Positions 231 through 58,794 of a DNA stretch of 64,000 bases are shown piece after piece. Location of the stretch: NCBI GenBank assembly GCA_963847445.1, contig CAWJZV010000007.1, positions 128,001 to 192,000 on the forward strand. Direction: 5' to 3'. The notes beneath the pieces were generated by a model. It was given only the letters and a program-made list of their open reading frames with translations. It had not been told where the DNA came from and made no database searches. The first letter of the stretch is position 1; each line of letters opens with the position of its first letter. Both the position numbers and the translations under genes were made by a program. The DNA comes from an uncultured delta proteobacterium (GTDB lineage: Bacteria; Desulfobacterota; Binatia; UBA9968).

Positions 231-278
231 GGGGTCGTTTCCTGCATTGCCACATACATGCGATAGCAAGACCTAATC
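231..278 (+). repeat. RAYT-end-derived hairpin, copy 1
   Basis: GGGGTCGTTTCCTGCATTGCCACATACATGCGATAGCAAGACCTAATC; TGCATTGCCACATA matches the upstream end of the element at 9821-10728. Confidence 0.7.
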
Positions 279-419
279 TTTTCGACTTCGTATTCGTTCC
301 AACCCGTCAAATCGTTTGTGCGAGTTGACAGAACGCCGGCCGTGCGGCTATTTTCCGCGAGAACAGCGCGCGCCGACAGTGCGCGATCTAGGGGCAGCCA
401 ACGGAAGGGAAAAGATACC

Positions 420-1607
420 ATGAAACGAAGCAGCGAAAGAATTCTCACGTCCCATGTCGGCAGCCTGGCCCGAGCCGACTCCCTGATACCTCTGCTGCGG
501 CTAAAAGAACAGGGACAGCCTTACGACCGCGACGAGCTCGCGCGGCGGGTGCGCGAGGCGGTAACCGACGTGGTGCGGCAACAGGTCGAAGCGGGCATCG
601 ATATTGTCACCGACGGCGAGCAGGGCAAATCGAGCTTCTACGGCTATGTCGTCGAACGCTTCAGCGGCTTCGAGCGCAAGCCGCCCGCTCCGGGCAACGA
701 GATGCGACCGCGGTCGGCGGGCAGGGAATATCTCGCTTTTCCCGACTACTACGCCTGGTCCGAACGCATCGCCGAACCGTTTGGCGGGCGCGGCGGGCGC
801 GGGCGCGGCGTCGATACTTGCACCGGGCCGGTCAGCTATAAAGGCCACGCGGCGGTTCAGGCCGACATCGCCAATCTCAAAGCGGCGACAAAAGGCCGCA
901 CCATCGAGGACGTCTTCATGCCTGCGATCTCGTCTGCCTACGTCGCGGCGACTTTTGCCAACGAATACTATCGCTCCCACGCAGAGTATGAGAAGGCCGT
1001 ATCCGACGCGCTGCGCGAAGAGTACAAGGCGATCGTCGACGCCGGATTCATTCTCCAGATCGACGATCCGCGCCTGGTCACCTATTATATGATGCACCCG
1101 GAGCTTAGCGTCGCCGACTGCCGGAAGTGGGCGGCCGAGCGCGTCGAAGTCATCAACGACTCGCTCCGCGGCATCCCGTCCGAGAAGGTCCGCTTTCATA
1201 CCTGCTACAGCATCGATGTCGGTCCGCGCATCCACGAGATGGCGCTGAAGGACATCGTCGACATCCTTCTGCAGATTAACGCCGGCGCCTATTCGTTCGA
1301 AGCGGCGAACCCGCGGCACGAACACGAATACCATGTCTTCGAGCGCGTCAAGCTGCCCGCCGGTAAGATCCTCATGCCGGGCGTGATCAGCCATACCACC
1401 AACCTGGTGGAGCACCCGGAATTGATCGCCGAACGAATCGTGCGGTTCGCAAAAATAGTCGGGCGTGAGAACGTCATCGCGGCAGCCGACTGCGGCTTTG
1501 CCGCCTCCGCTCTGCGCTTCAACGATACCCATCCCAGCGTGGCCTGGCTTAAGTTTGCCGCGTTGGCGGAGGGCGCCCGATTGGCGACCCGCGAGCTGTG
1601 GAATTGA
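420..1607 (+). CDS. Cobalamin-independent methionine synthase II family (MetE C-terminal-like) protein
   Basis: MKRSSERILTSHVGSLAR start, DGEQGK, Zn ligands HTC and ADCGF, EAANPRHEHE. Confidence 0.9.
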   Translation: MKRSSERILTSHVGSLARADSLIPLLRLKEQGQPYDRDELARRVREAVTDVVRQQVEAGIDIVTDGEQGKSSFYGYVVERFSGFERKPPAPGNEMRPRSAGREYLAFPDYYAWSERIAEPFGGRGGRGRGVDTCTGPVSYKGHAAVQADIANLKAATKGRTIEDVFMPAISSAYVAATFANEYYRSHAEYEKAVSDALREEYKAIVDAGFILQIDDPRLVTYYMMHPELSVADCRKWAAERVEVINDSLRGIPSEKVRFHTCYSIDVGPRIHEMALKDIVDILLQINAGAYSFEAANPRHEHEYHVFERVKLPAGKILMPGVISHTTNLVEHPELIAERIVRFAKIVGRENVIAAADCGFAASALRFNDTHPSVAWLKFAALAEGARLATRELWN

Positions 1608-1789
1608 GTGGCATGAGAGCGCCGCGCTCAAGCGTTATCGTGTCTGGTCAATTTACCGAAGCGGTATCCGCACGGACCAGGAAAGTCGAGAAGTAGAAGT
1701 TTGCCCCCGCGACCGAGAACTGGCGAATCTGAGTTCCGGCGTCCCGACCGATCACAGAAAGTGGGGCAGAGCCCTGTTCTTTTCGGTCA

Positions 1790-3643
1790 TCATTCTCCGT
1801 CTGCGGTTGTTTGACTATGGGCGTTCCATAGCACCGCAACGCCGACCAGGCTCGACACTATCGAAGCGGTGAACACAGCGATCTTGGCGGCGGCGAAATC
1901 GCTGGGCACCGGGAACGCCTGGCCCGAGATGAAAAGCGACATGGTAAAGCCGATACCGGCGAGCGCGCCGGCGCCGGCGAGTTGCCGCCAGGAATATGCG
2001 TTGGGCTTTTGCGCAAGCCCCGCCCGCACGGCCAAAGCCGACGCCGCAATGAATCCCAACGGCTTGCCGATCACCAGCCCAAGCGTGATCGCCAGCAGGA
2101 GTGGTTCACGGCCGCTCAGGACATCCGGCGTTATCGCCACACCCGCGTTCGCTAATGCAAAGATCGGCAGCACGAGATAGCTCGAACGCGGGCCGACATT
2201 GCGCAACAGCCGGTCCGCCGGAGATTCCAGACGATCATGGATCGCATCCAAGGCGCGCAGCGCGGGCACCGAAGCCCCTTGGCGCAATTGCTCGCCGCCG
2301 TGGCGCGCTTCCGCCGCCAGTATCGTATCCGCCTGCATCGCTAGCGTTCTAAAATCCGGCGGCGGCCGCGTCGGAATAAACGCGGCCAATAAGACGCCGG
2401 CCAACGTCGCGTGCAAACCGCCGGCGTGAACGCAAGCCCACAGGCCGACGCCCAGCAATAGATAAACTGACACGTTATAAACGGCCGATCGGTTCAGCAA
2501 GGCCAGCGCTCCGGTGAACGCTGCCGCAGCGGCGAGGTAGGCAAAATTCACAGCACCGGAATAAAAGAGAGCTACGACGATGATCGCCCCGATGTCGTCG
2601 ACAATCGCGGCCGCGGTCAAAAAGATACGCAGCTCGATCGGCACTCGCCTTCCCATCATCGCGATCAGAGCGACCGCGAAGGCGGTGTCTGTCGCCGTCG
2701 GCACGCCCCAGCCGATGGACCACGGCCCTGGTCGGATGACCAGCAGATAAAGCAGCGCCGGCACCGCCATGCCGCCGATCGCCGCTGCGATCGGCAACGC
2801 CGCGGAGCGCCAGCTAGCCAGATGACCGACGGTGAATTCGCGTTTGATCTCAAGGCCGACGACGAGGAAAAAGATCGTCAGCAGACCGTCATTGACCCAA
2901 TGCAGCAACGACATGCGAAAATCGGACTCGCCGAACGTGAAGCCGAAATAAGTGTGCCAAAATGCATCAAAGCCGGGGCCAAGCGCCGAGTTGGTGAGCC
3001 CAACGGCCAGGACCGACGCCAGCAGCAGCAACACGCCGGTCGAAGGCGCCCAGCTTGCAAAGCTCAGCGCGGCCGTGCGCACGCGATAGCCGAGCGGCGC
3101 GAGCATCGCATCGGAAAAAGAGCTTTCATCCCAGGGGCCGTCGTAGCGCCGTCCGTTGATGAAGAAGGTTGGCGTGAATTGCACACCGCTGGCGCGCGCG
3201 CTCTCGACATCGCGATCAACGCGGGCCTTGGCTCGCTCGATCGTCGCTTGCGTTTCTTGCCCATCTAGCGCATTTTGCCGCGCCAGGCCCAGCTCATCTG
3301 CGACGGCGCGCAGGTCATCCTCGGTCAGGGTTTTCGAGCGTGTCATCAGCGCGACATGGGCATCCCAGAACTTATCGGCATCCGCGATGGATTCGACCAG
3401 TTCGGCGGCGCGCCGGGCAATGTCGCTGCCGGTGATCGGGCGATGCCGGAACACGTAGCGCAGACGATCGCCGAACTCGCCGCGGACCTGGACAATGCGC
3501 TCGTTAGCGGCGCGGCAATGCGGGCAGTCGTAACTGCCATATTCCACAAGCGTGATCGGCGCCTCGTTCGGGCCGAGAATGTGATCCCGCCGGTCGTCCA
3601 CGAGATCATTGAGACGATGGTTCGTTTCGTTTAACCCTGACAT
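1790..3643 (-). CDS. nhaA: Na+/H+ antiporter NhaA with N-terminal thioredoxin/DsbA-like domain
   Basis: [44 protein letters not shown] motifs; N-terminal [10 protein letters not shown]. Confidence 0.93.
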
Positions 3644-3801
3644 CTCAGCTCCAATAATGAGGCATGGCTGGCGTTCTCGTTTATCCCAGGAAACCGCAAC
3701 CCACGACTGCTAGTTTTCCTTCGACCTACCATGCACTAACGGAAATTGGCTCCAGCACCGGCCGGGTTACGCAGTATCGAAGGATGCCCTTCGCCTGGCC
3801 G

Positions 3802-3853
3802 TCGGCGGCCGTCTGAACCCATCGATCCAATCAGGCAGGTCAGACGACACTAA
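3802..3853 (-). ncRNA. Candidate nhaA-I-like cis-regulatory RNA (Li+/Na+ riboswitch candidate)
   Basis: Sense strand GTGTCGTCTGACC...GGATCGA..GGGTTCAGACGGCCGCC forms a hairpin ending in GGCCGCC about 160 nt upstream of nhaA; resemblance to the motif is from memory, not from a search. Confidence 0.4.
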
Positions 3854-4004
3854 CGTATCGACAAATTTACGCAGCATGGCTGGCGAATTCAAACCCACGA
3901 GGTGATCGCTGGGCCAATGTTTGCGGCTCAAAGAGCGGTGGACGCCTTGTCATGATCGCTTGGTTGGCCGCGTGATTTCATGAGGGAGAGCTAAGGGATG
4001 TGTC

Positions 4005-4200
4005 CTGATAAATGGTAATGATTGCGGATTATGCAGTAGGCTTAGATCTCAACGTTTCCAGAGCCGGGCCGATCTCGACGAATCAGCGGAGAAAACTTTG
4101 CCGTCCTCGGTCTTGCAGAAAGATCTCCCGGCGCGATTGGCCATGACTGATGACTGGTAGGAAACGCCCCGGGGTATTCAATACGCAGCGGCCAGGCCAT
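4005..4200 (-). mobile_element. Degenerate 5' stub of RAYT-like Y1 transposase (family B)
   Basis: MAWPLRIEYPGAF...; homologous to 28225-28492 and 40615-40838. Confidence 0.8.
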
Positions 4201-4302
4201 GCAGTTTTTACCCCTACTCGCGCGTCCGCAACTCGCTGACTTGTGCCGCGAAACCATTTATCTTATCTTTCATGCTTCGATCCGCGTACCACCGACAACT
4301 CC

Positions 4303-5386
4303 ATGGAGTCAGAGATCACAAACTGCGCCAAGCGCGCCGAGCAGTTGAACGGCCACGATCCGCCGCACCGGCATCAATCCCAACTGCTGGTACATGATCG
4401 CCAAGGCATCGGACGTCCGCGAAAAGCCGCTGGGGCGGGAGATTTGGCGCCAACCGGTCGTCCTCTTTAGAACTCGAGACGGCAAACTGCGCGCGTTAGA
4501 GGATCGCTGCGCGCACCGGCTCGTGCGGCTCAGCCACGGGCGCGTCATCGATGACAAGATCGAATGCGCCTATCATGGCTGGCAATTCAACGACGCGGGC
4601 CGGTGCGTTCACGTGCCCCATCTCGCGGCCAAAACCAGCCTGCCCAATTGTCGGGTTAGATCGTTCCCGGTTCTCGAAAAGCACGGCTTCGTATGGATTT
4701 TTCTCGGCGATCCTGAGGTGGCCGCGACCGTCGCGCCGATGCGCATGAGCGAATGGGACGATCTCAACGAAATTCCCAGTTGGGTAAGACTGACCTCGCG
4801 CGCGCATTTTTCCTACCTGATCGAAAACTTGATGGACATGTATCACGGCAGCCTGCACGCCCAGTACCAGGTGTGGACCGCGCAAGCGCTCAAGGAGGTC
4901 GTCGAGGCCGATGATCGAGTGACGGCAATTTATGACGCCACCACGTACTATCGCGTAAAGGATCTCGCCTCGATTTTAGAGCTCTTCATTCCGCCGCTGC
5001 GGAAGCTTCGCTCCGCGCCTTTGACCGTGACCTATGAATATCCTAACTGGAAATCGACGTTGGGCGACGATTTCAAAATCTTCTGTCTGATCCGGCCCGT
5101 GAACGAGCGCTTCACCGACGCCTATCTTATTCACTATACTTCGCTGGCCAAATTTGACGGCTTAAAAAAAGCGCCGCTTGTCGTGCGGCGTCTGATCAAG
5201 CGGCTTCTAACCAACGTGGCAAAGCGGCTGTTGGCCAATCTGGTGCGCCAGGATGTCTTGATGATCGAGGAAGAGCAGCAGGCGTTCGACGCCGACCCGC
5301 TCCTGCAGCCGACTGAAATCAACCGCACCGTCCGCCGCGTTCAACGACTGATTCGTCGCCAAGCCTCCGCCGTGGAATCTCGATAA
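4303..5386 (+). CDS. Rieske [2Fe-2S] oxygenase alpha subunit, cyanobacterial-type (CruH-like candidate); probable 5' frameshift
   Basis: DRCAHR...CAYHGW Rieske motif, ENLMDMYHGSLH mononuclear Fe motif; TGINPNCWY lies in frame upstream of ATG 4394. Confidence 0.88.
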
Positions 5387-5417
5387 CTCGGCTCGCGCAT
5401 CCGGGGAATTCACTACC

Positions 5418-6939
5418 GTGCTCAAAGCCTTCCTACAATCGCGCATCAGAAACAAACTTGGCGGCTATAGCGTAACGATCAACGAGGTCGATCGGCGCAA
5501 GCCGGTATCGGTTTCGCCGGCGAAGAAAGTTGCCGTGATCGGCGCGGGCCTGGCCGGTATCGGCGCCGCCTCGGTGCTCGCGGAACGCGGCTTCGAGGTT
5601 ACTCTTTTCGAGCGAAACTCCTACATCGGCGGCAAAGTCGGCTCGTGGGATGTCGCTTTCGCAGACGGCTATGCGACCAAAGTAGATCACGGCTTTCACG
5701 CCTTTTTTCGGCACTACTACAACTTACGCGCCTTCATGGAAAAAATCGGCGCGCACCAGCGCTTCAAGACCATCGACGACTACCTGGTGCTGGCGAGCGA
5801 CGGCCAAAAATATAGTTTCAAGAATGTCGAGACCACGCCGGTGCTCAACATACTGTCGCTCGGGAAAAACAAGTTTTTCCGATTCCGCGATGTCTTGCTC
5901 AATCCGCCCAGCTGGCGAATGGGCGAGTTCTTGGAATACGATGAAGCGAAGACTTTCGCTAAATATGACGGCAATGACGTTCGCAGAATTCGCCAGCGCA
6001 GCTCAACTGCCATCGCCCTTGAGACTGACCTTCAATACCTTCGCGCGCGCCTTCTTCGCGCCCGCAGAAAAGTTGAGCACGGCCGAGCTGATGAAGAGTT
6101 TTCATTTTTTCTATCTCAGCCACGATCATGGTTTGCTCTATGATTACTTCGATACCGATTATCACAGCGCGCTACTCGAACCGATCCTTAGCCATCTACA
6201 GCGCCACCATGTATCGATCCGCTTGAACCACCGGGTCGAGGGGATTGGCCGCGAAAATAATCTGTTGACCGTCGGAGCCGAGCCGTTCGACTACCTCATC
6301 CTTGCCTCGGACGTGACCGGTACAAGCAGCATTTGTCAACATTCTCCCTGGATCGAGGCCGCATCGGCAAAGACTTGGTCGCAGCTGACCTCGTTGCAAG
6401 CTTCCAGCGGTTACGCCGTGTACCGGATCTGGCTAGATCGGCGCACCGGCGACAACTTCCCCGTCTTCATTATCACCGAAAAGCGCGCCGTTCTCGACTC
6501 CGTGACCTTCTACCATCAATTCGATAACAACGCCGCGGACTGGGCGCGCCGTTCCGGCGGCGGCGTCTACGAGCTGCACTGTTACGCGCTGCCCGACGGA
6601 ATTGCCGATGCCGATGTCAAAGCGGCTTTTTGCGCAGAGCTTCATGGCTTTTTTCCCGAGCTTCGCACAGCGACGATGATTCATGAGCATCTGCAGGTCA
6701 GGCGTGATTTCACCGCCTTTTATACCAACCTGCATGAGAACAGGCCCGAGTATCGAACGGCGATCGCCAATCTCTATCTTGCCGGCGATTGGGTAAAAAC
6801 CGGCACACCGGCGATGCTTATGGAAGGCGCCTTTACATCCGGAGTTCTTTGCGCCAACGCGATTCTGGCCCAACACGGTCTTTGCGAAGAGCCCGTGCGC
6901 TCCGTGCCAACGCGCGGGATCTTCGCAAAACTCAACTGA
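5418..6939 (+). CDS. crtU: CrtU-like carotenoid ring desaturase/methyltransferase (FAD-dependent); frameshift near 5970
   Basis: GAGLAG FAD motif, HGFHAFFRHYYNLR, C-terminal LAGDWVKTGTPAMLMEGAFTSG; split between ORFs 5418-6143 and 5824-6939. Confidence 0.75.
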
Positions 6940-6940
6940 A

Positions 6941-7619
6941 ATGTCATACACCTATCTTTTCATCAATGTCTTCATTATCGCCATCCCGCTTGCACTGACA
7001 TTTGACAAGCGAACAGCCTACTTCCGCCAGATCCCCGCCGTCGGCTTTGCGACCGGTGTCGTGAGCGCCTGCTATCTGATTTGGGACGTTCTCGTGACCG
7101 CCCGCGGCGAATGGAGCTTTAACGGCAAATATCTGACCGGCGTTCACTTGCTGAACATCCCGCTCGAAGAAGTGCTTTTTTTCATCACCGTGCCTTATAG
7201 CTGCCTGTTCATCTACGAGGTGGTTTTATTTGCGACTACAGACAGATTTTACAAAATGTCGACTCCGGTATTGATCACGGTGATCGTCCTGCTGGCCGCG
7301 GCGAGTTTGGCGCTGCGTGATCAAGGATACACTTCGAAAGCGCTGGCCTCGTGCAGTTTTTTTCTCACCGTCGCCTACTTGGTTGGACCGTCCGCTGCTG
7401 ACCAGCCGCCGTTATTGGACGTGGTTGGCGATCTGTTACATCCCGTTTCTGCTGGTCAATTCAGTGCTGACCGCGCTGCCGGTTGTGGAGTACAATCCTA
7501 CGGCGATATTCGGCCTGCGCGTGTTCACGATTCCCATCGAAGATTTTTTCTACAACTACGCGATGTTGTCCTTCTACCTGCTGTTTTATCGCCGGCGCAG
7601 AAAATCACTAGAGCCATAG
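6941..7619 (+). CDS. Lycopene cyclase, fused CrtYc/CrtYd type; frameshift near 7380
   Basis: Two hydrophobic halves, each with PLEE/PIED-FF motif (IPLEEVLFF, IPIEDFFYN). Confidence 0.85.
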
Positions 7620-7902
7620 CAGGCAAAAACGTTTTTGCCGCGCCGCCGCTGAGCATAGTTTTTCGTTTGTATAGTATTGTCCGGCGCTGATGCGGTCCGC
7701 TGCTGGGTCGCGTCTTGTATAGCGACAAATGGGTTATTGCCAGAGCTGGCGCCGCACTTGGGTCCTCGGACGCCGCCGCCCGGTGCTGCGCCGACTCCCG
7801 CGCGATTGACTTTCGCAACCTGAGGCGAGACATTTTTGCATGTTTCCCGCGCCGGCTACATGTCCATGACAACCGTGCTGTCTTGAAGACTGGAGGTGTT
7901 CA

Positions 7903-8658
7903 ATGCGTAAAGGTCAGCAAATCAGTCGCCGAACCTGGTTGGCCCAGGTTGCCTTGGGCGGTTTCGCGGTATGGAGCGAACTCAATTTCGGCCTCGGGCG
8001 CAGGGGCTGGGGTGTCGCCATCGGCGGGCGCGATCTCGCGATCGGGGTCGCCCACGCGCAGAACCTGGGGCCAGCCGAAACACTGCGGGTGAACTTAGGC
8101 GTCGTCAATGCCTACGTCCTGGTCCGCGGCAAGGAGGCGGCGGTGGTCGATACCGGCACGCCCAACAATGGGTCAAAGATCGCCGACGTAGTTCGCACCG
8201 CCGGCCTGAATTGGGATGCGGTTCACCACGTGATCCTGACCCACTATCATCCCGATCACATAGGCAGTGTTGGAGAAGTTCTGGGGGCGGCCGTCAAGGC
8301 GACGGCCTACGCCGGCGCCGCGGACATCGCGCAGATCAAGTCGCCGCGCCCGCTCAAGGCGGTCGGTGATAACGACGAAGTGTTCGGCCTGCGCATGATC
8401 GCGACCCCCGGTCACACACCGGGTCACCTATGCGTATTCGATCCGGTCGGATCGCTGCTCATCCTCGGCGACGCCATGAACAACATCGGCAATAAGCTCG
8501 GCGGTCCCAATCCCCAGTACACCGCCGACATGGCCCAGGCGCACCAGAGTGTGAAGAAGCTGGCGAAACTCACCTTCCAGCGCGCCGTCTTCGGCCACGG
8601 CGATCCGATCGACAAGGGCGCCTCGCAGGCGATCGCCAAGCTGGCCGGCACTCTGTGA
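7903..8658 (+). CDS. Tat-exported MBL-fold metallo-hydrolase
   Basis: SRRTWL twin-arginine signal, THYHPDH, TPGHTPGH, GD, FGHG. Confidence 0.88.
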   Translation: MRKGQQISRRTWLAQVALGGFAVWSELNFGLGRRGWGVAIGGRDLAIGVAHAQNLGPAETLRVNLGVVNAYVLVRGKEAAVVDTGTPNNGSKIADVVRTAGLNWDAVHHVILTHYHPDHIGSVGEVLGAAVKATAYAGAADIAQIKSPRPLKAVGDNDEVFGLRMIATPGHTPGHLCVFDPVGSLLILGDAMNNIGNKLGGPNPQYTADMAQAHQSVKKLAKLTFQRAVFGHGDPIDKGASQAIAKLAGTL

Positions 8659-8724
8659 GAGTTCGCCTAGGTCGAAGTTAGATCGATTAGTCAATTATCG
8701 AAGAGAGCTTCCAACCGGTGGCTT

Positions 8725-9718
8725 TCAAAAACCTTGAAGCGTTCCGTCGGGGGTTCTGACGACATGCTTGAGGGGCGCGCCTGAAAGATAGCGGCGCGTG
8801 TTGTCGCGGATAAGTTCGCTCATCCGCCGCCACAATTGCCGTCCGCCCTGACCGCCGACATGGGGCGTCAGCAGCACGTTGGGGAGATCCCACAGCGGGC
8901 TCGCTGCGGGCAACGGTTCCTCGGCGAGAGCGTCTAGTCCGGCCCCCATGATGCGGCCCTCGGCGAGGGCGCGGGCCAGTGCCGCCTCGTCCACTACCTT
9001 GCCGCGGGAGATGTTCACGAGGATTGCCGTCTCCTTCATGAGCGCGATTCTTTCGGCGCTCAGAAATCCCCTGGTGTCGCTGTCCAGCGGCATCGCCACC
9101 ATGACCACATCGGCACTGGGAAGGACCTCGTCTACTTTTTCCCGGGACACCACGCGATCGATCTCCGGCACGGCGGGGGAAGGCGAGCGGGTGACGCAGA
9201 TCACCTCCATATCGAACGCCTTGGCCTTGCGCGCAATGTCCTGGCCGATGTGGCCCATGCCGAGGATCACCATGCGCGCGCCGTCGGGGTCGAGTATGTG
9301 CGAAGACATGCCGTGGCGCGCCCACTCGCGCCGTGCGCGCAGTTGCTCGAACCGGCGAAAGCCGCGCATGACGCCCAGCATCAGAGCCATGGCGTGGCTG
9401 GCTAGCACCCGCTGGCTGACGTCGCCGCTATTGGTGACCCAGACACCGTCAGGCAGCCCCGCCCTCAGTCCGATTTCGACACCGACGGTGGTGAACTGGA
9501 GCCACTTGAGGGCCCGCCCTTTGTCACGCACCAGGCGGGCGAATTCCGCGGTGAAGGCGGAGTTGTAAACATGGAGGATTTCCGCGCCGTCGAGTGCCTT
9601 GGCGAGGGATTCGAGGCTGTCGAGCCTTGGCCACCTCGACCTCGGGGAAGTCGCGCAGGAAGGCTTCGTCCACCACGTCACTGGCGGCGTGCACGAACTG
9701 GGCAATGCGAACTGTCAT
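8725..9718 (-). CDS. D-2-hydroxyacid dehydrogenase; frameshift near 9625
   Basis: GMGHIG, NISRG, LDA..EP, LTPHVG; start MTVRIAQF at 9718 is in another frame. Confidence 0.88.
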
Positions 9719-9820
9719 GATGCTCCTCCGTGGCCTCGGCACGCCGGCGTGCCGGTGGTAAATATAAAAGTCGCATACCGTTTATCTTTGACGAGAAAAA
9801 TATCGCGAGCTATCGATACC

Positions 9821-10728
9821 GGGCCAGACCTTGCAATCCGATTTCCGCCAATATCCTAACGCGACTTCTCGAGCTGTTTGAGCCTGCGACTCACCGTCGC
9901 GTAATGCACTCCCAAATGGCTGGCGATCTCGTGCAACCGGTAGCCATGCTCGCGATACGCCTGCGCGATCCCTGCTTGTTTATTCTTGGCAAAGATCCGA
10001 TCCAAGGTCGGTTTGGCCGCTTTGAGCTGCGCCCGGGGAATCTCCTTTAGTTGCTTGCCTGCCGCCGAGTGCCGCTCGACAAACTTTTCGCTGCCCAAGT
10101 AAATCTGCCCTTTGAGCTCCTGCCATGGCCGTTCTGCCAATCCGTCGCTGACAAATGCTCGATAGCGCTTCTGCGCTGTCCGCCGGTGCTTGCCGAATTG
10201 CCCAAGGACCCAATCTACGCTCAACAACTCCGGCACTTTGGCCCGTCCCGCGGTGGCCCGGTAACTACTCCACTTCCACGCGGCATGCTCGACCCCGCCT
10301 TTGACTCGCGCCGGATTGAGCACGATATAACGGCACAGCTCCAACAGGTAAGACTCCTTCTCAACTAGGATTGCCTTGTATCGTCCTTGCAACAAATGCC
10401 CCACCCGCTTGTGGCGGCGATTGAAACTCTGAGTGTATAGACCGTTGAGCTGGCGCATGCCGATGGCGAGATTGCCGCGCGGCGTCTCGACCAGCAGATG
10501 ATAATGATTGGCCATCAAACAGTAGCCATGGCAGATCCACCCGTAGCGCGAGACCACCTGGGTGAGCGTGTCGAGAAACAACTCTCGGTCAGCGTCGCTG
10601 AAAAAAATCTTCTGGCGGGCGTTGCCGCGGCTGGTCAGATGGTAGACTGCTCCCGCGAATTCCATCCGTAGCGGTCGTGCCATGGCGGGGTAATATCAGT
10701 GCTTATGTGGCAATGCAAGACCTGACCC
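9821..10728 (-). mobile_element. Intact RAYT/IS200-superfamily Y1 HUH element (family A) with imperfect inverted ends
   Basis: Left end GGGCCAGACCTTGCAAT; right end ATGCAAGACCTGACCC; encloses the transposase gene. Confidence 0.85.
9856..10683 (-). CDS. REP-associated-type tyrosine (Y1) transposase with C-terminal HTH
   Basis: MARPLR, YHLTSRGN, CLMANHYHLL (HUH), QGRYKA, YIVLNP (catalytic Tyr), WSSY, C-terminal EIASHLGVHYATVSR. Confidence 0.93.
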   Translation of the reverse strand: MARPLRMEFAGAVYHLTSRGNARQKIFFSDADRELFLDTLTQVVSRYGWICHGYCLMANHYHLLVETPRGNLAIGMRQLNGLYTQSFNRRHKRVGHLLQGRYKAILVEKESYLLELCRYIVLNPARVKGGVEHAAWKWSSYRATAGRAKVPELLSVDWVLGQFGKHRRTAQKRYRAFVSDGLAERPWQELKGQIYLGSEKFVERHSAAGKQLKEIPRAQLKAAKPTLDRIFAKNKQAGIAQAYREHGYRLHEIASHLGVHYATVSRRLKQLEKSR

Positions 10729-10769
10729 TTTGTTGCGCTATTGCTATTGGTTGACTCTCGGAACTGATT

Positions 10770-12914: not shown

Positions 12915-12958
12915 CACCCGCGGTCAGGGATCTCCTTCGCGTCCTCGGCAGCGAAGTC

Positions 12959-13013
12959 GGGGCCGGGTCTTGCAATGCGACAACGGATTGGTCGATTGCG
13001 AGACCTGGTCCCC
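12959..13013 (+). repeat. RAYT-end-derived hairpin, copy 2
   Basis: GGGGCCGGGTCTTGCAATGCGACAAC...ATTGCGAGACCTGGTCCCC. Confidence 0.85.
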
Positions 13014-47182: not shown

Positions 47183-47260
47183 TGGATATGTGCCCTAGCT
47201 ATTGAGTAGCTCGGTCTTCCTATCACATGAGCCAGATTTCGAAAACATTGCCCGGTTTGT

Positions 47261-47480
47261 ATTTCTTATGCGTCAAGTCAGGGGAAGAGCAGAGGAACGC
47301 CCCCAGCTGGTTTATCTGGCGCGGGAGTGGAGCGGGATAACGATCAAGGAGTTGGGGCGGCGGCTGCATCGGGACCCGTCGATGATTAGCCGGTTGTACG
47401 GTTGGTACCAGGGACATCGGAATAGACAAACGGAAGAGAGGCTGACCCGAGCACTGTCTAAATAATCAATACTCAGGCCC
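47261..47480 (+). mobile_element. 3' (HTH) stub of a third RAYT-like transposase
   Basis: LVYLAREWSGITIKELGRRLHRDPSMISRLY, followed by AATCAATACTCAGGCCC. Confidence 0.75.
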
Positions 47481-47513: not shown

Positions 47514-47559
47514 GGATTGCGCCTTGCAGTGGGAAAATGTGCTATTGCAAGACCTCGCC
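47514..47559 (+). repeat. RAYT-end-derived hairpin, copy 4
   Basis: GGATTGCGCCTTGCAGTGGGAAAATGTGCTATTGCAAGACCTCGCC. Confidence 0.7.
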
Positions 47560-47708
47560 TTAAGTACTGTGATTATCGGAGATATCTTCTTTCCTTCCTG
47601 AATGATAGCTTTACGGCGAGGATCAGAATCGCATTTCACAATTTGACGACATACTCACCAAAGACCTTAGCCGAATTCTTGAAATCCGAAAAAAGGATAA
47701 AGCGATAT

Positions 47709-47940: not shown

Positions 47941-47962
47941 TTCTTCATCCAGTGGTTGCTGT

Positions 47963-48008
47963 GGTCGAGTCTTGGATTGCGACAAATGTCTGATCTCAAG
48001 ACCTGGGC
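47963..48008 (+). repeat. RAYT-end-derived hairpin, copy 5
   Basis: GGTCGAGTCTTGGATTGCGACAAATGTCTGATCTCAAGACCTGGGC. Confidence 0.75.
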
Positions 48009-48483
48009 TCGGCGTCGCTGGCGCTATCTCAAATTCTTCCAACACCTCCGCGCTCGGTAATCCGATCGCCACGGCGTGGCGCCGATAACCCATATTCACA
48101 CTGACCCGAAGCTCTATTGGTTTCTTGCCTGACACGCAGCCCTCCTTCTGTAAAACAAGATCGATTCATCATCCTTCGGTCTCCTCTACTTACAGAGCCA
48201 CGTATTCGGTGAGAAGATGGCACCATCATCGATTCCTCAGATGATGCAGGTGACGAGGGCGGCATTTCAAGCCGTTGCGAGCCTGAAAGAACAGGCCACT
48301 GACCCCAAGAGCCACACCCTCGTCAGAAACTTCTTTAGTCGATTCTTTTCGTTTCCGCTACCTGTTAGATTCCGATGGTAGACCCTATGCCGATGCGCGA
48401 TCAACGGACGTGCTAACAGGGGTAGCTGGGGGTATTCGCGCCGGCAGCACAGCAAAATGCGAGTTCAATAACGGGATTATTTC

Positions 48484-49556
48484 ATGGCCAAAGAGAGGAA
48501 AGCAAAGATCAAAACGTCTAACGTCTTCCTCGATACGGAAGTCTTTGTTGAAGCAAGCTTCAACTACAATTCACCACGCTTCGCATCTCTTACCGAGCTT
48601 GCTAAAACTCAACGAATAACGGTTTTCCTAACCGACCTGGTATTACGCGGGATAAAGGCCAACATCAAAGACACTGTTGAACGCGCTATCGCCGCATCAA
48701 GGCCTCAGCCAATATTTCGAAACTCGTCAGTACCCCAGGTGAAGGCGCTATTCAAGGGGCTCGACGCTGCTGCCATAAGAAGAGGACCTTTTCACTCAAC
48801 TCGATGCTTTCATCAAGAACGCTGATATCACAATCTTAGCGGTGAAAAACCAGTTCCTCACTCCGGTCCTTGATAATTATTTTAATCGACTTCCTCCATT
48901 CGGTATCGGGAAGAACAAAGCGGAATTCCCCGACTCCTTGAACATTGAAACGCTTAAAGAATGGTGTCGCACAAAAAAACAAAACATGGCCATTGTCACC
49001 CGAGATCAAGGAATAAAGGCTGCCTGCTCAGATGATGGACCTTGTTACCATTTCGAGGACCTTCCCAAATTTCTTGATGCAGTGGCCTCGGAAGGCAAGG
49101 CTCTTTCAGGATTCATTCGCAAGATGATCAGGCGTTTTGACGACAAGAGATCCTGAAAAAAGCCGAGTACGCGTTTCCGAACCTCGGTTTCTATTTAGAG
49201 GACCAGGAAGGTGACGTTAACACCGTTGAAGTGACCGAAATAGAGTACGACGGAAAAATCGAGATCATTTCGCTGGCGACTGAGACAGCAATAGTCGAGA
49301 TGCCTGCAACGATTACCTTCGACGCCGAAATAAGCTACGACGACTCTAGTACCGGGATCTGGGATAGTGAGGACAAGGTCCTCCTCTTCCAAGAAACGAA
49401 AGAGGAAACGGTGACATCGACGAGTGCATCGCAGCATCGCTGTTCGAGATGAGTTTTAAGCCTCTACAACCCAGTTCCTTCCATATACGCCGCGTCTGGT
49501 TCGAGGGGAAGCAGGATATCCCGGTCGAATCGGACGAGGGTTGGCCTTACAAGTAG
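48484..49556 (+). CDS. PIN-like (DUF4935) domain protein with several frameshifts
   Basis: VFLDTEVF, YFNRLPPF..KKAEFPD-like motif, IVTRD; acidic C-terminal region. Confidence 0.8.
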
Positions 49557-49592: not shown

Positions 49593-49933
49593 ACGTTGTT
49601 GAATAGCTGGACAAAGTCTAAGGGATAGCCGACAGATAAGTCGGAGGCGATAATAAGCAAGGCTCGATAGTGCGGGTACGCTCCAGTATTACGATGATCC
49701 GGGGGATCAAGGTGGTTATCTCGGAGGCGTGCAAGATAAACGGCATATCGCTGACAGAACTCAGAAGCGGCAGCCGACGTAGAAAGATGCCTACGATAAA
49801 AGTACCATTCAGGTGCAAGTTGGTGAAAGATTTTGCCGTAGCGATCGCCGAGATAGCGCTCCAACTCGGAAAATCGACTTCAGGGTTTTTAAAGTTATTG
49901 ACGAAATGTTTGTCCAGCTAGTCAACAACGTCC
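49593..49933. mobile_element. MITE family M, full copy 2
   Basis: Same ends; collinear with 43119-43474 but diverged. Confidence 0.85.
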
Positions 49934-52340: not shown

Positions 52341-52720
52341 GGGCAAATCCGCTTTTTACTCTTTGCCAAAGCCTCCTCAATTCTTCGTACTCGACGGGCG
52401 AGCTTTTTTTCCTGTACCACTCTCGAGTTCATCCGCAAAAACGCCGATCTCACCGATGAGGTTTTTCTCCAATCCCACCGCTCTACCGATGTGCCCGCCT
52501 ACTTGCCGACTCGTTACATCGCTACCAACAAAGCCTTGCCCTCATTGTCGCGCTTACTCTTACCCCTCAATGACTCGGACCGTTTTGCGTACTCGCGAGC
52601 CGTTGCTTCGACTATTTCGTCGATCCCAGTCCCAAAGATTTCTCGCGATGGTGAGCTTCTCCTCCTCCGCTTCGCGCCCTTTCCCTTGAGCTTTTCTATA
52701 ACCCGTTCAATAAATACACA
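52341..52720 (-). mobile_element. Degenerate 3' part of RAYT family B
   Basis: Minus-strand fragments FIERVIEKLKG, DEIVEATAREY, KTSSVRSAFLRM..EKKLARRVRRIEE; end GGGCAAATCCGCT. Confidence 0.7.
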
Positions 52721-54178: not shown

Positions 54179-54466
54179 TAAAAGTCGATTAGGATAAATC
54201 TATACAGGCTGTTTAAAAACCTAGGGTTTCAAGAAAAATGATCACGGCGTCTTAGTCTTGTGAGAAATTGCTTTCCAAACACTGTTGGCGGGAGGCAACG
54301 TGCGACACTCGCGATATTCCGTGATTTTTATGTCTACCAGGTTTCGTTTATTTGCTTGTTATAAAACATTGTCGTCGGCTGAGGGAGGCCACCACGCCAT
54401 TATCAGAGAAGCAAAGACACCGACGCGTCCTCCATGTACTGAAATGGATAGCCAGAGGGCACAAGA

Positions 54467-54503
54467 GGGACGTTGTTGACTAGCTGGACAAAGTTTTTGA
54501 AAA
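54467..54503. mobile_element. MITE family M, isolated left end
   Basis: GGGACGTTGTTGACTAGCTGGACAAAGT. Confidence 0.75.
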
Positions 54504-54683
54504 GGATCTTCCAAACCTAGAGGTTGCGATGCCGCTTGATGAGCAACCATTTTCCCGAGCTGCGAATTATCTCCGTTCTCAATTCAAACACCCCGACGCC
54601 GCGATTCGCAGTTTCGTAAGACCGCTCGGCATCTCGCTGGATACCGACGCAGCGTTCGTAGATCCGTCTGTCTAAGAATGCGC

Positions 54684-54893
54684 TCAGCTCGGCCGCGCGA
54701 GGATCTTCGCGTACAGCCGGTCGTACTCCCGCTGGTTGATCGCGCCTTCCTTCAGCGCGCGTTGCAGGTCAGTGAGTTCCTGTCCTTTGGAGATGGTCGT
54801 CGTGCCCTGCACTCGGACGTAGGTATCGCTGCCACATCCTGCGAGCGTTCCAATGACGAGCGCGGCGAGGGCAAAGTCAAAAATCTTTTGCAT
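54684..54893 (-). CDS. Small SHOCT-like lipoprotein
   Basis: LAGC lipobox; GQELTDLQRALKEGAINQREYD. Confidence 0.8.
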   Translation of the reverse strand: MQKIFDFALAALVIGTLAGCGSDTYVRVQGTTTISKGQELTDLQRALKEGAINQREYDRLYAKILARPS

Positions 54894-54912
54894 AAAGCGT
54901 CTCCGTCCGCCG

Positions 54913-55122
54913 TCACTTCACGTTGTCGATCAGCTGCTCTTTTTGGCGCTCGTAGTCGCGCTCGCTGACCGCGCCCGAGTCACGCGCCCTCTTGAGGTCG
55001 ATCAGCTGCTGCCCGACCGACACGCTGACCGTGGGCTGCAATACCTCGTTTCCGCCGCAACCCGCCGCCGTCAGCGTGGCTGCGAGTGCCGCCGCGGCTG
55101 TCATCCTCCGGCCTTTCGTCAT
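54913..55122 (-). CDS. Small SHOCT-like lipoprotein (paralogue)
   Basis: AAGC lipobox; GQQLIDLKRARDSGAVSERDYE. Confidence 0.8.
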   Translation of the reverse strand: MTKGRRMTAAAALAATLTAAGCGGNEVLQPTVSVSVGQQLIDLKRARDSGAVSERDYERQKEQLIDNVK

Positions 55123-55134
55123 CGCGTTCTCCCC

Positions 55135-55205
55135 TCAGGACCAGCGTCACTTCGAGCGCGCCGAGCTTCTCGACCGCGCACGCGACCTTGTCGCCAACCT
55201 TGAGC
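55135..55205 (-). pseudogene. Orphan 3' end resembling a fumarylacetoacetate hydrolase family gene
   Basis: LKVGDKVACAVEKLGALEVTLV. Confidence 0.5.
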
Positions 55206-55232
55206 TATTTATAGATATCTAAACCAACTTTT

Positions 55233-55269
55233 TCAATCCTTCGTACTCGCCGAGCGAGTTTTTGCTTCC
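55233..55269 (-). mobile_element. Short 3' stub of RAYT family B
   Basis: TCAATCCTTCGTACTCGCCGAGCGAGTTTTT matches 37032-37065. Confidence 0.65.
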
Positions 55270-55373
55270 GCAGAGGGGGGATGCCTCCACAGCTTTGTGC
55301 GTGCCGAACGGCGTGGTATACGACCATAGCATCGGCGGCAGCGAAGCACTGAAGAAAGAAGGAGAGAACGAGC

Positions 55374-56627
55374 GTGAGCGCTGTAGTTGAGTTGGATCTT
55401 CGCCCGACGGCGACGGCCGAGCTTTTTTCCGCGCTGTATCAGGCCTACTTGAAGCTCGAGCCGGGCACGCGCCTGCGCGCCATCGTCGATACCAATCCGC
55501 GACGTTCGTATATGGGCTTTGTCGAGGCGGGGATTGCGCATCGCATTGCGCGGCTTGGCGATGGTGAATGGGAATGGTCGGCTACGCGGGCAGCCTGGCA
55601 GCCGATGGGCAACGGGCCCGGGGTGCATCACATCGGCATCTCGCCCGACGGACGGCGCCTTTACGCGGTGGATCGCGAGCGCACGGTGTTCCTGTTCGAT
55701 ACCGAGCGCCAGCGCCTGACGGCGAGCGCCGCGGTGAACCAAGGAACCTCGCACCTGGCGGTGCACCCGCGCTCGGGCCGGGTGTACGTCTGCGAGCGCA
55801 GCACGCACAGCATGGTCAGGCTCGACGCCGAAACCCTCGAAACCCGCGGACGGATCGGCACCGGCGAGAGCCCTAATCTGCCGACGGCGGCGGAAGACGG
55901 CAGCGTCGTCATCCTGCCCGGAGGCAACGGCATCCTGACGGTAGCGCGCGACGACGCGGAGTTGCAGCGAACCAATTTACCGATCGGCGGCAAGCCCAGC
56001 GCTTCAACGGTAAGCCACGACGGGCGGCGCGCCTACGTTCCCGACGCGGCGCGCAACCTCCTGGTTAGCGTCGATCTGGAACAGGGAAGAGTGCTGGCCG
56101 AAACACCGGTGGGCGACGGCCCGTCTCATCCCATCGTCACGCCGGACGATCGCACGGTCTGCATCGCTAACTCGCGGTCGCACGACATCTCGCTGGTGGA
56201 CGCGCAGACTTTTCAACTTCTGGCGACGATCCCGAGCGGCGAGGCGGCGCATCAGACGACCCTGACGGCGGACGGCAACACACTGCTGGTAGCGAACTTC
56301 TTCGAGGACTCGGTGAGCGTCGTCGATCTGCCGAGCAGGACCCGCGCGGCGGTGGTGAAAGTCGGGCCGTATCCGCACGGCCTCGACATGGCTCCCGGCA
56401 ACCGCTACGCCGTCGCCACCCATTTCGGCGATCCCTGGGTCAGCATCATCGACGTGGTGGAACGTAAGGTCGCCGCCCGGGTGGCGGCCGGGCTCGGCTC
56501 TTCGCACACAACTTTTTCACCGGACGGCGAGCGCGCCTACGTCGCCAACAGTCTGGCCAACAGCGTAACGGTCATCGACTTGAACAGCCTCGAAGCGACC
56601 GCGCAGATCGACGCGAGCAAAGGATAA
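55374..56627 (+). CDS. DUF2249-like domain fused to a YVTN/YncE beta-propeller
   Basis: N-terminal LDLRP...LEPG..L..D.NP; repeated SPDG..YVAN..S.SV.D blades. Confidence 0.85.
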   Translation: MSAVVELDLRPTATAELFSALYQAYLKLEPGTRLRAIVDTNPRRSYMGFVEAGIAHRIARLGDGEWEWSATRAAWQPMGNGPGVHHIGISPDGRRLYAVDRERTVFLFDTERQRLTASAAVNQGTSHLAVHPRSGRVYVCERSTHSMVRLDAETLETRGRIGTGESPNLPTAAEDGSVVILPGGNGILTVARDDAELQRTNLPIGGKPSASTVSHDGRRAYVPDAARNLLVSVDLEQGRVLAETPVGDGPSHPIVTPDDRTVCIANSRSHDISLVDAQTFQLLATIPSGEAAHQTTLTADGNTLLVANFFEDSVSVVDLPSRTRAAVVKVGPYPHGLDMAPGNRYAVATHFGDPWVSIIDVVERKVAARVAAGLGSSHTTFSPDGERAYVANSLANSVTVIDLNSLEATAQIDASKG

Positions 56628-57028
56628 GCGGATCGTAAGATCGGGATCGGACCGGGGAAATCAGTCGAATTTGCGACAGAAGATAAAATGAAAGGCGTCT
56701 TTAAAAGCCTAGAGGCTACTTTTTCGCTCTAAAAAAACCCCGCTAAGAAAAGCCAATGCCCCACACTTTTGTTTAGGCCGTTCGAGTCGTTCAACCGCTT
56801 CGCTCAGTTCAAGCCGTTGAAGATGAAAACATCGAGAGCCTTGGAACTCAACCTGATCGGACCCCGCCACCTGACTGGTGCAGTAGTCAACGTTCAGAGC
56901 GCAGAATTGCGTTGACAGGCCGCAGAGTTTTCCCTAGCATTCCGGTGCGCCGAAGACTTTCGATCTTCGTGGAAGCATTCGAACGCTACCGGAGATTTTG
57001 GCGCAAGATTTTCAATGAGGTGGAAGGC

Positions 57029-58003
57029 ATGGCATGCTCTAGACGCACGGTGCAATTTCGACTTTTTGTCTGGACAATTCTTCCGGCAGTCGCGTTCGGC
57101 GCTGTTTTTCCCGACGTGACGGTCGCGCAGGCGCAAAAAATCAGAATCGCCTATTCGAGCCGCAGCAACACCGTCACGCCGTTATACGTCGCCGCCGACA
57201 AGGGCTTGTTTCGTGATGAAGGGCTGGAGGTGGAACTGATTCAGGTGAGCCCGCGCCTCGGCGCGATGGCGGTGATGAACGGCGACGTTGCGTTCACCAC
57301 GTCATTCACCAGTACCTTTCGGGCCATTCTTCAAGGCGTTCCACTGAAGCTGGTTTTAGTCGCGCTCAAAAAAGGCGTGTATTATTTGGTCACCCGGCCC
57401 GAAATCAAAAACGTCCAGGAGCTCAAAGGGAAAAAACTCGGGATCGCAACGATACGCGGCACCGACAGTATCGTCGCGGAGGAACTCCTCCGCTCAAAGG
57501 GGTTTAATCCCACTCAGCTCCAACAGATCGTCATCGGCGATACGGCGCTTCGAGCCCAGGCGCTCATGACCGGAGTTGTTCAGGCCGTGTCGTTGTCGCC
57601 GCCGCACGACCTGCTGCTTAAAAACTTGGGCTATAATATTTTGGCCGGCCCGCCCGAGGTCGGCTTGCCGGCGTCGGGTTTATTCACCTCGAATCGTCTG
57701 CTGAAAGAGAATCCGCAGGTGGTAAACCGAAGCTTGCGCGCGGTCCTTAGGGCCAATCGCTTTATCGCGGCGAACCGCCAGGAGACCATTGCCGTGATGT
57801 CAAAATGGCTGGCGCAGACTCAAGAGGTAGCGGGCCAGTCCTACGACGTTGAGCTAAAAGCGCTCACCAAAGACGGGCAAATGACCGACGCTGAGTTGGA
57901 AAGCCTGATCGATCGACTGGGCGAGAAAAAAGCTGCGTTGGACGGAGTGAGAGACTTCAATCCCATCCGCCAGGCGATCAAGGAATTAGACACCAAACAA
58001 TGA
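57029..58003 (+). CDS. ABC transporter substrate-binding protein (SsuA/THI5-like)
   Basis: DKGLFRDEGLEVELI, ELKGKKLGI. Confidence 0.9.
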   Translation: MACSRRTVQFRLFVWTILPAVAFGAVFPDVTVAQAQKIRIAYSSRSNTVTPLYVAADKGLFRDEGLEVELIQVSPRLGAMAVMNGDVAFTTSFTSTFRAILQGVPLKLVLVALKKGVYYLVTRPEIKNVQELKGKKLGIATIRGTDSIVAEELLRSKGFNPTQLQQIVIGDTALRAQALMTGVVQAVSLSPPHDLLLKNLGYNILAGPPEVGLPASGLFTSNRLLKENPQVVNRSLRAVLRANRFIAANRQETIAVMSKWLAQTQEVAGQSYDVELKALTKDGQMTDAELESLIDRLGEKKAALDGVRDFNPIRQAIKELDTKQ

Positions 58004-58126
58004 CGCAGAGTTCCTCTAAGAAAAACCGATGCCACGCGCTAATTAAGTAACGAAGCCGTGCAATCGCTTCGCTGCATTCAAAACGTTAAAAACTAACGGC
58101 GGTTAAAGGGTGCAAGTTTTCAAAGT

Positions 58127-58317
58127 TCAAGCACGGATTGGAATGGCACACTTCCACGCGTACGCAGTGACGGGCTCACTAAGACCCCTCAACGGATAGG
58201 ATCCGACGTCTTCCAGCTGGCTCTCGCAGCCCGCGCGTTCAACAAAGTCCTTCGAAAACAGCACCGATCGTTTGACCTCCTTGGTCAAGGCTTCGAGTCT
58301 TGACGCGATGTTGACCG
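58127..58317 (-). pseudogene. Duplicated 3' end of the adenylate/guanylate cyclase gene
   Basis: 58157-58317 matches 59081-59242 with mostly synonymous changes. Confidence 0.9.
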
Positions 58318-58363
58318 GGCGCTCCTTGCAGTGCGACAAATATGCGATCGCAAGACCGGGCGC
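58317..58363 (+). repeat. RAYT-end-derived hairpin, copy 6
   Basis: GGGCGCTCCTTGCAGTGCGACAAATATGCGATCGCAAGACCGGGCGC. Confidence 0.78.
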
Positions 58364-58378
58364 TAACCTCGTCGCTAT

Positions 58379-58600
58379 TCATGCGGCTGTTTCGGTCCAG
58401 ACTTGCCGCCACGCTGCGAATTCGGCGGGTCTTATCTCGTAGCGCGCGTAATTCCCTTCGTGCAGGCCGAGCAGTTCGCTTTCGGCCATCTCCCTGAATC
58501 GCTCGCGGTCGGCAGGAGCCACGTTCTCCTGGATCCATTGCGCGACGTGAGCGGCCGCCGCCTTCCGGGCCATGCGCCCGTGTATGACCTCGCTATATGC
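58379..58600 (-). pseudogene. Orphan 3' end of a Fic-family protein gene
   Basis: DRERFREMAESELLGLHEGNYARYEIRPAEFAAW, resembling the C-terminus of Fic proteins. Confidence 0.65.
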
Positions 58601-58745
58601 GCAATTAACCAATCTATACACAGTCATAGTTGCGCATAGTTGTTTAAAGCTGCGTTTATGTAGCATATGCGCAACTATGGAATCCCGCAGAGCCACCAGA
58701 CGCCTCTGTAAAATCAAGGCCTAACTGGTTACGCGCGGAGATTAC

Positions 58746-58794
58746 GGGTCGTGTATTGCGGTGCGACAAATCCGTGATTGCAAGACCTGGAACC
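58746..58794 (+). repeat. RAYT-end-derived hairpin, copy 7
   Basis: GGGTCGTGTATTGCGGTGCGACAAATCCGTGATTGCAAGACCTGGAACC. Confidence 0.78.

Follow-up and report, generated by a model that had tools for sequence, protein, structure and literature searches.

Co-oriented remains of TIRtron-like elements clustered in an accessory region of an uncultured delta proteobacterium

Results

Inventory of the marks and gene content of the region

The window, that is, the whole stretch of 64,000 nucleotides that was analysed, belongs to the genome of an uncultured delta proteobacterium (C7:128001-192000 in assembly G000, 7.19 Mb in 48 contigs) and carries the remains of two families of transposable elements, A and B, which encode Y1-type HUH transposases. 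These remains, called marks, were recovered by repeat finding, tblastn, blastn and nhmmer. Sixteen of them lie between positions 231 and 58794 (59 kb) and comprise one intact element, eight fused-end repeats, four stubs of the 5' part of a transposase gene and three stubs of the 3' part; a fused-end repeat spans 48-55 nt and unites a left with a right end. The orientation of all 16 marks matches that of the intact gene (two-sided 3e-5 if the marks are independent). They are as follows, G004 being the closest genome searched and TIR standing for terminal inverted repeat.

231-280, plus strand: fused-end (TIR-dimer) repeat of family A type; nhmmer E 1.6e-10
3994-4202, minus strand: decayed 5' gene stub of family B (B4); blastn 82% against the 28221 stub, tblastn against the G004 family B protein E 4.7e-6
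7704-7753, plus strand: fused-end repeat; nhmmer E 1.9e-11
9821-10728, minus strand: intact family A TIRYT element; gene 9856-10683, 275 aa, left end degenerate, right end stopping at 10728
12960-13012, plus strand: fused-end repeat, the sole strong hairpin in single-stranded DNA; nhmmer E 7.5e-10, fold -19.8 kcal/mol, z -5.3
19933-20250, minus strand: diverged 5' stub (B20) with a family-A-like right end; adjoins a thioesterase fragment at 19572-19931
25897-25946, plus strand: fused-end repeat within a block collinear with G004; nhmmer E 2e-11, weak orthologous copy in G004
28221-28492, minus strand: frameshifted 5' stub of family B (B28); 92% against the intact family B element at the orthologous site in G004
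36983-37069, minus strand: 3' stub of family B, with the last ~20 codons and the left end; 87% against the 3' end of the G004 family B gene, translation, repeat match
40609-40841, minus strand: 5' stub of family B (B40); 93% against B28, tblastn E 2e-21, surrounding DNA absent from G004 at the locus
47514-47560, plus strand: degenerate fused-end repeat; nhmmer E 2.6e-9
47961-48010, plus strand: fused-end repeat; nhmmer E 4.5e-12
52341-52717, minus strand: 3' stub of family B (residues ~198-323, stops present); tblastn 53% identity, E 4.5e-24, translation
55217-55270, minus strand: family B-like 3' stub (last ~18 codons), common to G004; repeat match, translation, inside block 54468-56669, which is 97% like G004
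58315-58364, plus strand: fused-end repeat in an insertion found in G000 only; the insertion is bracketed by a 162-nt duplication, 58156-58317 / 59080-59242
58745-58794, plus strand: fused-end repeat; nhmmer E 7.8e-12

Another 5' stub, the fifth, is found outside the window, 1.3 kb upstream. Overall, the 5' stubs are 70-93% alike, the one at 19933 showing 70-75% similarity to the others, and frameshifts and stops occur in the stubs, while the flanks of the 5' stubs are unrelated to each other. These figures bear on the possibility that the marks multiplied through segmental duplication of mark-bearing blocks, or that they are an artefact of assembling a mixed population. Local duplications are present (10743-11411 / 16141-16809 and 58156-58317 / 59080-59242) and the estimated contamination of the assembly is 6.9%; however, the flanks of stubs and repeats are dissimilar, the copies differ by 7-30%, relics stand at orthologous sites in two other assemblies, and contigs of four metagenomes span parts of 1-20000 (three fill all 30 or 28 depth bins and the contigs of X1 end near 15,300). 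Such an origin is therefore very improbable.

Much of this inventory had been anticipated by the original prediction, made from the letters and open reading frames (ORFs) of the same DNA. The 16 marks lie at or near the places where it had put at least 16 marks related to RAYTs, the transposases associated with repetitive extragenic palindromes (REPs). The intact element that it had placed at 9821-10728 was confirmed by the minus-strand gene 9856-10683, which has the Pfam domains Y1_Tnp and HTH_23; four 5' and three 3' stubs were recovered, the numbers that it had given for family B, with the 19933 stub among the four; and the single orientation claimed for each family holds for all 16 marks. 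A separate family C stub had also been announced, by which that at 19933 was probably meant; the stub exists, with ends like those of family A and the likeness to the other stubs given above. Seven end-fusion hairpins had been described: the fused-end repeats are real, but number eight, and the word hairpin is a misnomer for most, as one of the eight (12960) folds. Truncated or duplicated genes abut three of the marks, as had been claimed (the 19933 stub, the element end at 10728 and the 58315/58745 repeats). Mapping of density and strand with hidden Markov and covariance models, which had been proposed as a check, found the marks strongly clustered and co-oriented in the window.

By Pfam, the genes of the region belong to accessory catabolic families with many paralogues (two UbiD, five NMT1-like, two AMP-binding, two enoyl-CoA hydratase and two MetE-like genes); amidohydrolases, metallo-beta-lactamase-fold proteins and several broken genes are also present. 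The gene blocks hold 1-6 genes on both strands, and GC content ranges from 0.47 to 0.63 across the window in 2-kb steps. None of the small ORFs between paired repeats matched Pfam, and Rfam and tRNA scans of the window returned none. Tyrosine integrases (PF00589) matched seven times in the genome and not once in C7:128001-192000, where the rve transposase model (PF00665) had no match either.

Transposases, terminal repeats and class of the elements

The protein encoded at 9856-10683 matches Pfam Y1_Tnp (PF01797) with 42.9 bits against a cut-off of 23 (6.2e-11) and carries a C-terminal helix-turn-helix (HTH) domain, HTH_23, with 32.1 bits against 24.6 (9.4e-8). All six sequences of an alignment, namely the family A protein and five homologues, have the HUH motif H60-Y61-H62 and Tyr119 unchanged. 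The gene lies between imperfect inverted ends at 9821 and 10728, of which the right one reads GGGTCAGG and the left one is degenerate. Family B elements end, in G004, in the terminal inverted repeats GGGGTCAAGTC and complement, and the tail of the G004 protein resembles the C-terminal region of DnaA (E 3.7e-9, far under the full-length cut-off). The original prediction of an HUH/Y1 origin and of inverted repeats of the GGGG(T/A)C type was thus borne out on both counts, the repeats being terminal.

The NCBIfam model REP_Tyr_transpos (NF047646) scored 64.8 and 74.9 bits, below its cut-off of 80, and transpos_IS200 (NF033573) gave no match for family A and 26.4 bits for family B against a cut-off of 55; the proteins are therefore not filed under classical RAYTs or IS200. 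No other transposase family matched at E up to 0.01 in Pfam or NCBIfam, where the matches were Y1-type models and models of HTH-type tails (HTH, sigma-70, DnaA), and searches of PDB sequences with the protein and with the six-sequence profile gave no match at E 0.01. Judged by domain architecture and ends, the elements are assigned to the TIRYT/TIRtron class, TnpA-Y1 subclass 2.1, and are thus transposons of single-stranded DNA.

Relatives of family A were sought among genome contigs, where 499 pattern matches yielded 382 confirmed loci, of which 80 were kept (51-80% identity, many phyla). In 53 of these 80, ends could be identified, both of them with the core GGGGTCAGGTCTTG. Transposase and core are conserved in metagenome-assembled genomes (MAGs) labelled as many phyla, one archaeal MAG among them, and the protein identity of 51-80% across such MAGs suggests a wide horizontal spread of family A. 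Extra ends were found in the flanks (up to 10 kb a side) of 17 of the 53 loci with identifiable ends. The orientation of 20 of these 31 extra ends could not be assigned; nine have that of the master element and two, both at one locus, the opposite (two-sided p 0.065). Loci of other phyla likewise contain duplicated ends together with co-oriented 3' stubs.

Decay of the elements

The site that holds the 28221 stub in the window is occupied in G004 by an intact family B gene (324 aa) with both ends. Where the window has its intact family A element, the same genome retains a remnant in which the left end is followed by about 270 nt of degenerate coding sequence from the 3' part of the gene and then immediately by the right end; the 3994 site holds a further-decayed relic, and only the last ~60 nt (the right end) are retained at the 19933 site. 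Folding of the fused-end repeats as single-stranded DNA gave a result better than shuffled sequence for 12960 alone, the other seven having z between -0.6 and +0.8, and only five pairs are kept in the consensus fold. As read from these copies, the marks form a decay series, which runs from the full element through internally deleted forms with both ends (in G004) to the 48-nt fused ends and the 5' and 3' stubs; it is traced from the intact and remnant copies at orthologous sites in G004, the frameshifted stubs and the lost folds.

Clustering in the genome and in the genus

Fused-end repeats were counted with an iterated nhmmer model seeded from the window copies (E < 1e-3; the best score lies on another contig). 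Eight of the 13 copies in the genome fall inside the window, where 0.116 would be expected (P 7e-13). Searches with three Y1 proteins (tblastn) found 15 Y1 loci genome-wide, eight of them in C7:126.7-180.7k (seven in the window and the one upstream by 1.3 kb). Stub DNA of family B is confined to C7:126.7-168.8k within the 7.19-Mb assembly (blastn). To the right of the region, 40 kb that are collinear in G004 (window-equivalent 63742 to 103485) contain no repeat at E 1e-3 and a single weak match (E 0.034) at C7:194778.

The genus was surveyed with a covariance model of the repeat in 31 genomes, including the unpublished G005 (1 match). Matches range from 0 to 11 per genome, with any match in 16 of the 31, and clusters occur only in the window's genome and in G014. 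Nine of the 11 repeats of G014 lie on C17:34-113k, all on the plus strand, between flanks common to the window's genome.

A replication-strand rule was considered for the uniform orientation and rejected: outside the window, the gene sense lies on the G-rich strand in just 5 of 12 marks, so that strand targeting alone fails to explain it. GC skew is steady along the contig, and no skew turn indicating a replication origin or terminus was seen on it.

The marks could be passive bystanders, in which case the variation of the region would stem from horizontal transfer, illegitimate recombination and relaxed selection, and transposon remains would simply be tolerated. Mosaic GC content fits this explanation, as do the many paralogous catabolic and split genes, the further repeat families described below and the unmarked state of half of the rearranged junctions. 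However, if insertions were simply tolerated, orientations should be random and other accessory regions should hold copies too, yet all family B DNA is found here and 16 of 16 marks are co-oriented; the repeat-free state, at the same threshold, of the collinear 40 kb to the right also speaks against it. On balance, a purely passive role is rather unlikely.

Comparison with related genomes

Blocks of G004 are 87-99% identical to the window, and their order is scrambled across it. Two further genes of the window recur in the comparison:

10743-11851, minus strand: full copy of a Lactamase_B_2 gene, which begins 15 nt beyond the family A right end (10728); a second copy of the 3'-most 669 nt occupies 16141-16809
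14070-14819, plus strand: single-gene block, DUF4136 (Pfam), found in three contexts in three genomes

In window positions, G004 begins with 1789-3977, 4231-7628, 14070-14819, 7787-8690, 14909-16809, 16806-19459, 20182-21414, 21437-27619 and a stub; next comes -1231 to 219, joined via a half-repeat to 13029-13218; later follow 45920-47317, 27664-28213, the intact family B element, 54468-56669, 56973-58050 and 59042-60241. A Meth_synt_2 gene and a 2-hydroxyacid dehydrogenase gene with a family A remnant stand 185 kb away. The left flank of the 231 repeat (1-219) is therefore joined to 13029 in G004, and the segment 280-12960 (12.7 kb), which has a repeat at each edge in the window, corresponds there to an empty site with one half-repeat.

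The DUF4136 block precedes a DUF763 gene in the window. In G004 it is inserted where the window has the 7704 repeat, and left-half repeats precede it on the left. The copy in G014 is 40 kb distant and is flanked by direct copies of a left-half repeat, which have a spacer in common; one metagenome places the block beside the family A right end. G014 shares both flanks of the window and has, between and beside these flanks, blocks and repeats of its own, including its own same-direction cluster. Gene blocks are thus reordered in both relatives, many block edges having repeats close by, and the claim of a reshuffled accessory region stands. From these alignments, the region is best described as a long-lived plasticity zone, reshuffled between relatives.

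Such a pattern raises the possibility that the marks form a platform for gene cassettes. An orientation-locked TIRYT array would then operate in an integrase-free manner: the Y1 enzyme would pair left and right ends of different copies, excise gene blocks as a single-strand circle and re-insert them at end repeats. Because all copies share orientation and strand, any left end could be used together with a downstream right end. Consistent with this are the DUF4136 block in its three contexts (left-half repeats in G004 and G014, a family A right end in one metagenome), the segment 280-12960 between two repeats as against one half-repeat in G004, the co-orientation of all 16 marks, the reordered blocks with repeats near many edges, and the duplicated ends with same-orientation 3' stubs in other phyla. 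Were it true, an HUH Y1 enzyme would be running integron-like gene capture and shuffling; the window and its homologous locus in G014 would exemplify this in nature, and the DUF4136 block would be an active cassette.

Rearrangements in relation to the marks

Metagenomes were compared as assembled contigs only, which reveal variants and cannot reveal rare molecules or circles. Contigs join 10727 (the last base of family A) to 14059, with the 38 nt after 10728 replaced; they break at 13008 in two runs and skip 7644-7749; and in two runs they follow the G004-like order of 14826 then 8196. An exact break at an element end is to be expected of any mobile element whose carriage differs among populations.

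Junctions with comparable neighbours were tabulated from our own reading of the G004 comparison. At marked junctions the neighbours are changed in five cases and unchanged in six (six and six if the 17-kb stretch found only in G000 is counted); at unmarked junctions they are changed in six and unchanged in 11. Marked junctions are thus not enriched for changed neighbours relative to G004 (Fisher p 0.70 or 0.47). A position-weight scan for cryptic half-sites at rearranged junctions that lack a mark, namely 1701-1789, 8690-8724, 14819-14909, 16806 and 27619-27664 found none above background. The marks are not preferred breakpoints inside the unstable region.

The proposal that blocks are gained or lost exactly at the marks consequently survives in part: some breakpoints are exact (10727, 13008), but there is no general enrichment. 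The further proposal that the marks act as attC-style recombination sites found little support, in view of the junction counts, the decay of most marks and the loss of the stem in seven of the eight repeats, which argues against conserved, attC-like folded sites. The same lack of enrichment and loss of pairing count against the cassette platform, together with six rearranged junctions that have neither a mark nor an above-background cryptic half-site, the degenerate left end of the sole intact element, and the occurrence in G015 of the amidase without a flanking 3' or 5' stub. Present evidence does not favour the platform, which is unlikely, and the attC-like reading is weakly supported.

G015 also disposed of a candidate for cargo inside a split element, composed of the 3' stub 36983-37069, the amidase gene, the Meth_synt_2 gene and the 5' stub 40609-40841: its amidase has neither stub.

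Further repeats and duplications

The two copies of the Lactamase_B_2 duplication (10743-11411 / 16141-16809) are 98% identical over 300 nt and both map to one G004 gene. The 16141-16809 copy represents the 3' part of Lactamase_B_2 where G004 has a full gene, and about 2 kb of G004 are missing at 16806-16809. About 4.4 kb beyond an ORF of 343 aa and unknown family (62464-63495) lies a paralogue of it (region 62443-63565 against C7:194868-195988); both match one G004 gene with 85-88%.

A second repeat family, resembling miniature inverted-repeat transposable elements, occupies 43114-43477, 45748-45890, 49593-49931 and 54457-54524 in the low-GC part, with terminal inverted repeats of 23-30 nt. 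It comprises two copies of ~340-364 nt, an internally deleted copy and a solo end; the three copies, long and deleted, are co-oriented, and in the genome the family is limited to the window except for two matches of 26-28 nt. A dispersed repeat at 58862-59050 (palindromic core 58917-59000) forms a ~190-nt unit which is 93-96% alike on C27 and C13; its core gives matches of 33-104 nt on more than 20 contigs, scattered unlike the clustered fused-end repeats. A repeat of ~40 nt (39247-39285 / 56786-56824) is inverted in the window and has at least eight further copies in the genome; the stretch 56669-56973, which carries one of the copies, is absent from G004.

To the right of the 47961 repeat, a segment of ~360 nt (48026-48386) recurs with 82% identity at G000 C15:6813-7180 and is multi-copy in relatives; the C15 copy lies ~200 nt from the sole fused-end repeat of that contig, beside an rve transposase gene. 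Split genes include one resembling amine oxidases and phytoene desaturases (5418-6143, 5824-6939) and a PIN_12 gene (48484-48825, 48842-49156), with breaks away from the marks. Three tandem units of 27 nt (12408-12488) lie in an OmpA-family gene with a collagen-like repeat region.

Discussion

Taken together, the data probably reflect two TIRtron families that re-insert locally in a fixed direction and decay in a plasticity zone, with ends that are occasionally fragile or recombining. Both families would have inserted repeatedly in the region, in the same direction each time, and then decayed in place. An excised single strand may re-insert nearby into the same strand and so give rise to new local copies; both the clustering and the single orientation would follow from such re-insertion. 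Nicking or aborted transposition at element ends could turn these into fragile sites, which would contribute to deletions, duplications and rearrangements, though not to most of them. The 48-nt repeats may be minimal derivatives comparable to REPINs, mostly inert now.

Several observations weigh against this explanation. Local re-insertion is what we infer from the arrangement of the copies, and neither excision nor insertion was seen as such in the analyses. Genome-wide, the copies do not obey the lagging-strand rule known for IS608-type elements, which 5 of the 12 marks outside the window follow. The truncation points of the 5' stubs fall within ~40 nt, just past the HUH codons, and those of two stubs lie within ~4 nt, by an internal GGGGTC that corresponds to the end-repeat core; random decay predicts no such clustering, which hints at the use of pseudo-ends. 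Moreover, the DUF4136 block stands beside end repeats in three contexts, and both these contexts and the segment 280-12960 look like gain or loss mediated by repeats.

The locus offers a natural series showing how REPIN-like repeats can arise from a TIRtron, and its striking local, co-oriented accumulation goes beyond what a strand-targeting rule alone explains. It also provides defined substrates, namely the 12960 repeat and the ends of the intact elements of families A and B, for a first functional test of whether the enzyme moves neighbouring genes. If it does, a new route of gene shuffling would be at hand; if not, the region would be a transposon graveyard in a plasticity zone.

Comparison with known systems

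Integrons provide the comparison from which the idea of recombination sites derives. Their attC arrays likewise consist of short, imperfect, co-oriented palindromes between accessory genes, and attC recombination occurs on folded single strands. In contrast, the window has no integrase, its sites do not keep the fold, its blocks hold multiple genes on both strands, and rearrangements are not enriched at the sites. ISCR/IS91 elements, which capture genes by one-ended rolling circle, have a Y2 HUH transposase and ori and ter ends; the only transposase models that the proteins studied here matched were of the Y1 type.

The IS200/IS605 family (IS608, ISDra2) shares the HUH Y1 chemistry on single strands. 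Its members insert in a strand-specific manner coupled to replication, and the direction-preserving local re-insertion suggested here would borrow from that model. They differ in having subterminal hairpins, no terminal inverted repeats and no HTH tail, whereas terminal inverted repeats are present here, and the copies outside the window do not follow the strand rule. Strand-specific insertion coupled to replication is named in PMC6006769.

RAYTs and REPINs (Bertels and Rainey 2011, PMC3116915; Nunvar 2010, PMC2817692) also combine a single-copy Y1 gene with short, non-autonomous doublets of inverted repeats which it is thought to mobilise. REPINs, however, are dispersed and number hundreds, against 13 copies here, eight of them in one 64-kb window; furthermore, the ends in this genome are the terminal inverted repeats of the element and not REP hairpins tagged with GTAG. 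In picocyanobacteria, TnpA-REP has been associated with prochlorosin gene clusters (bioRxiv 10.1101/2020.03.09.984088), and the authors later noted no strong evidence for or against causality. That proposal resembles the present case in that it envisages a local diversification of neighbouring genes driven by the enzyme, from genomic association only, and differs in subclass, hosts and gene cargo.

The closest likeness is to the TIRYT/TIRtron class itself, characterised in passages of Di Nocera et al. 2013 (PMC3733652) by a Y1 core, an HTH tail and terminal inverted repeats of the GGGGWSAS type instead of REP hairpins; TIRYT is equated with TnpA-Y1 subclass 2.1 in passages of Quentin et al. 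2018 (PMC6006769). The elements studied here have a Y1 HUH transposase whose C-terminal domain is of the HTH_23 or Bac_DnaA_C-like kind, a gene set between GGGGWSAS-type terminal inverted repeats rather than REPs, and repeats in modest numbers as singles, dimers and clusters. Moderately abundant families of such repeats, in the same three arrangements, are reported in the part of PMC3733652 that deals with them, so that fused-end repeats in themselves are no novelty. The sole activity test of TIRYT proteins mentioned there is an in-vitro assay of binding and cleavage, which is put forward as a proposal, and the main-text passages of PMC3733652 and PMC6006769 make no mention of orientation-locked local arrays, stubs or synteny breaks. 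What sets the present locus apart is the accumulation of 16 co-oriented remains of two families within 59 kb, gene stubs alongside end dimers, at a site that is reshuffled between species.

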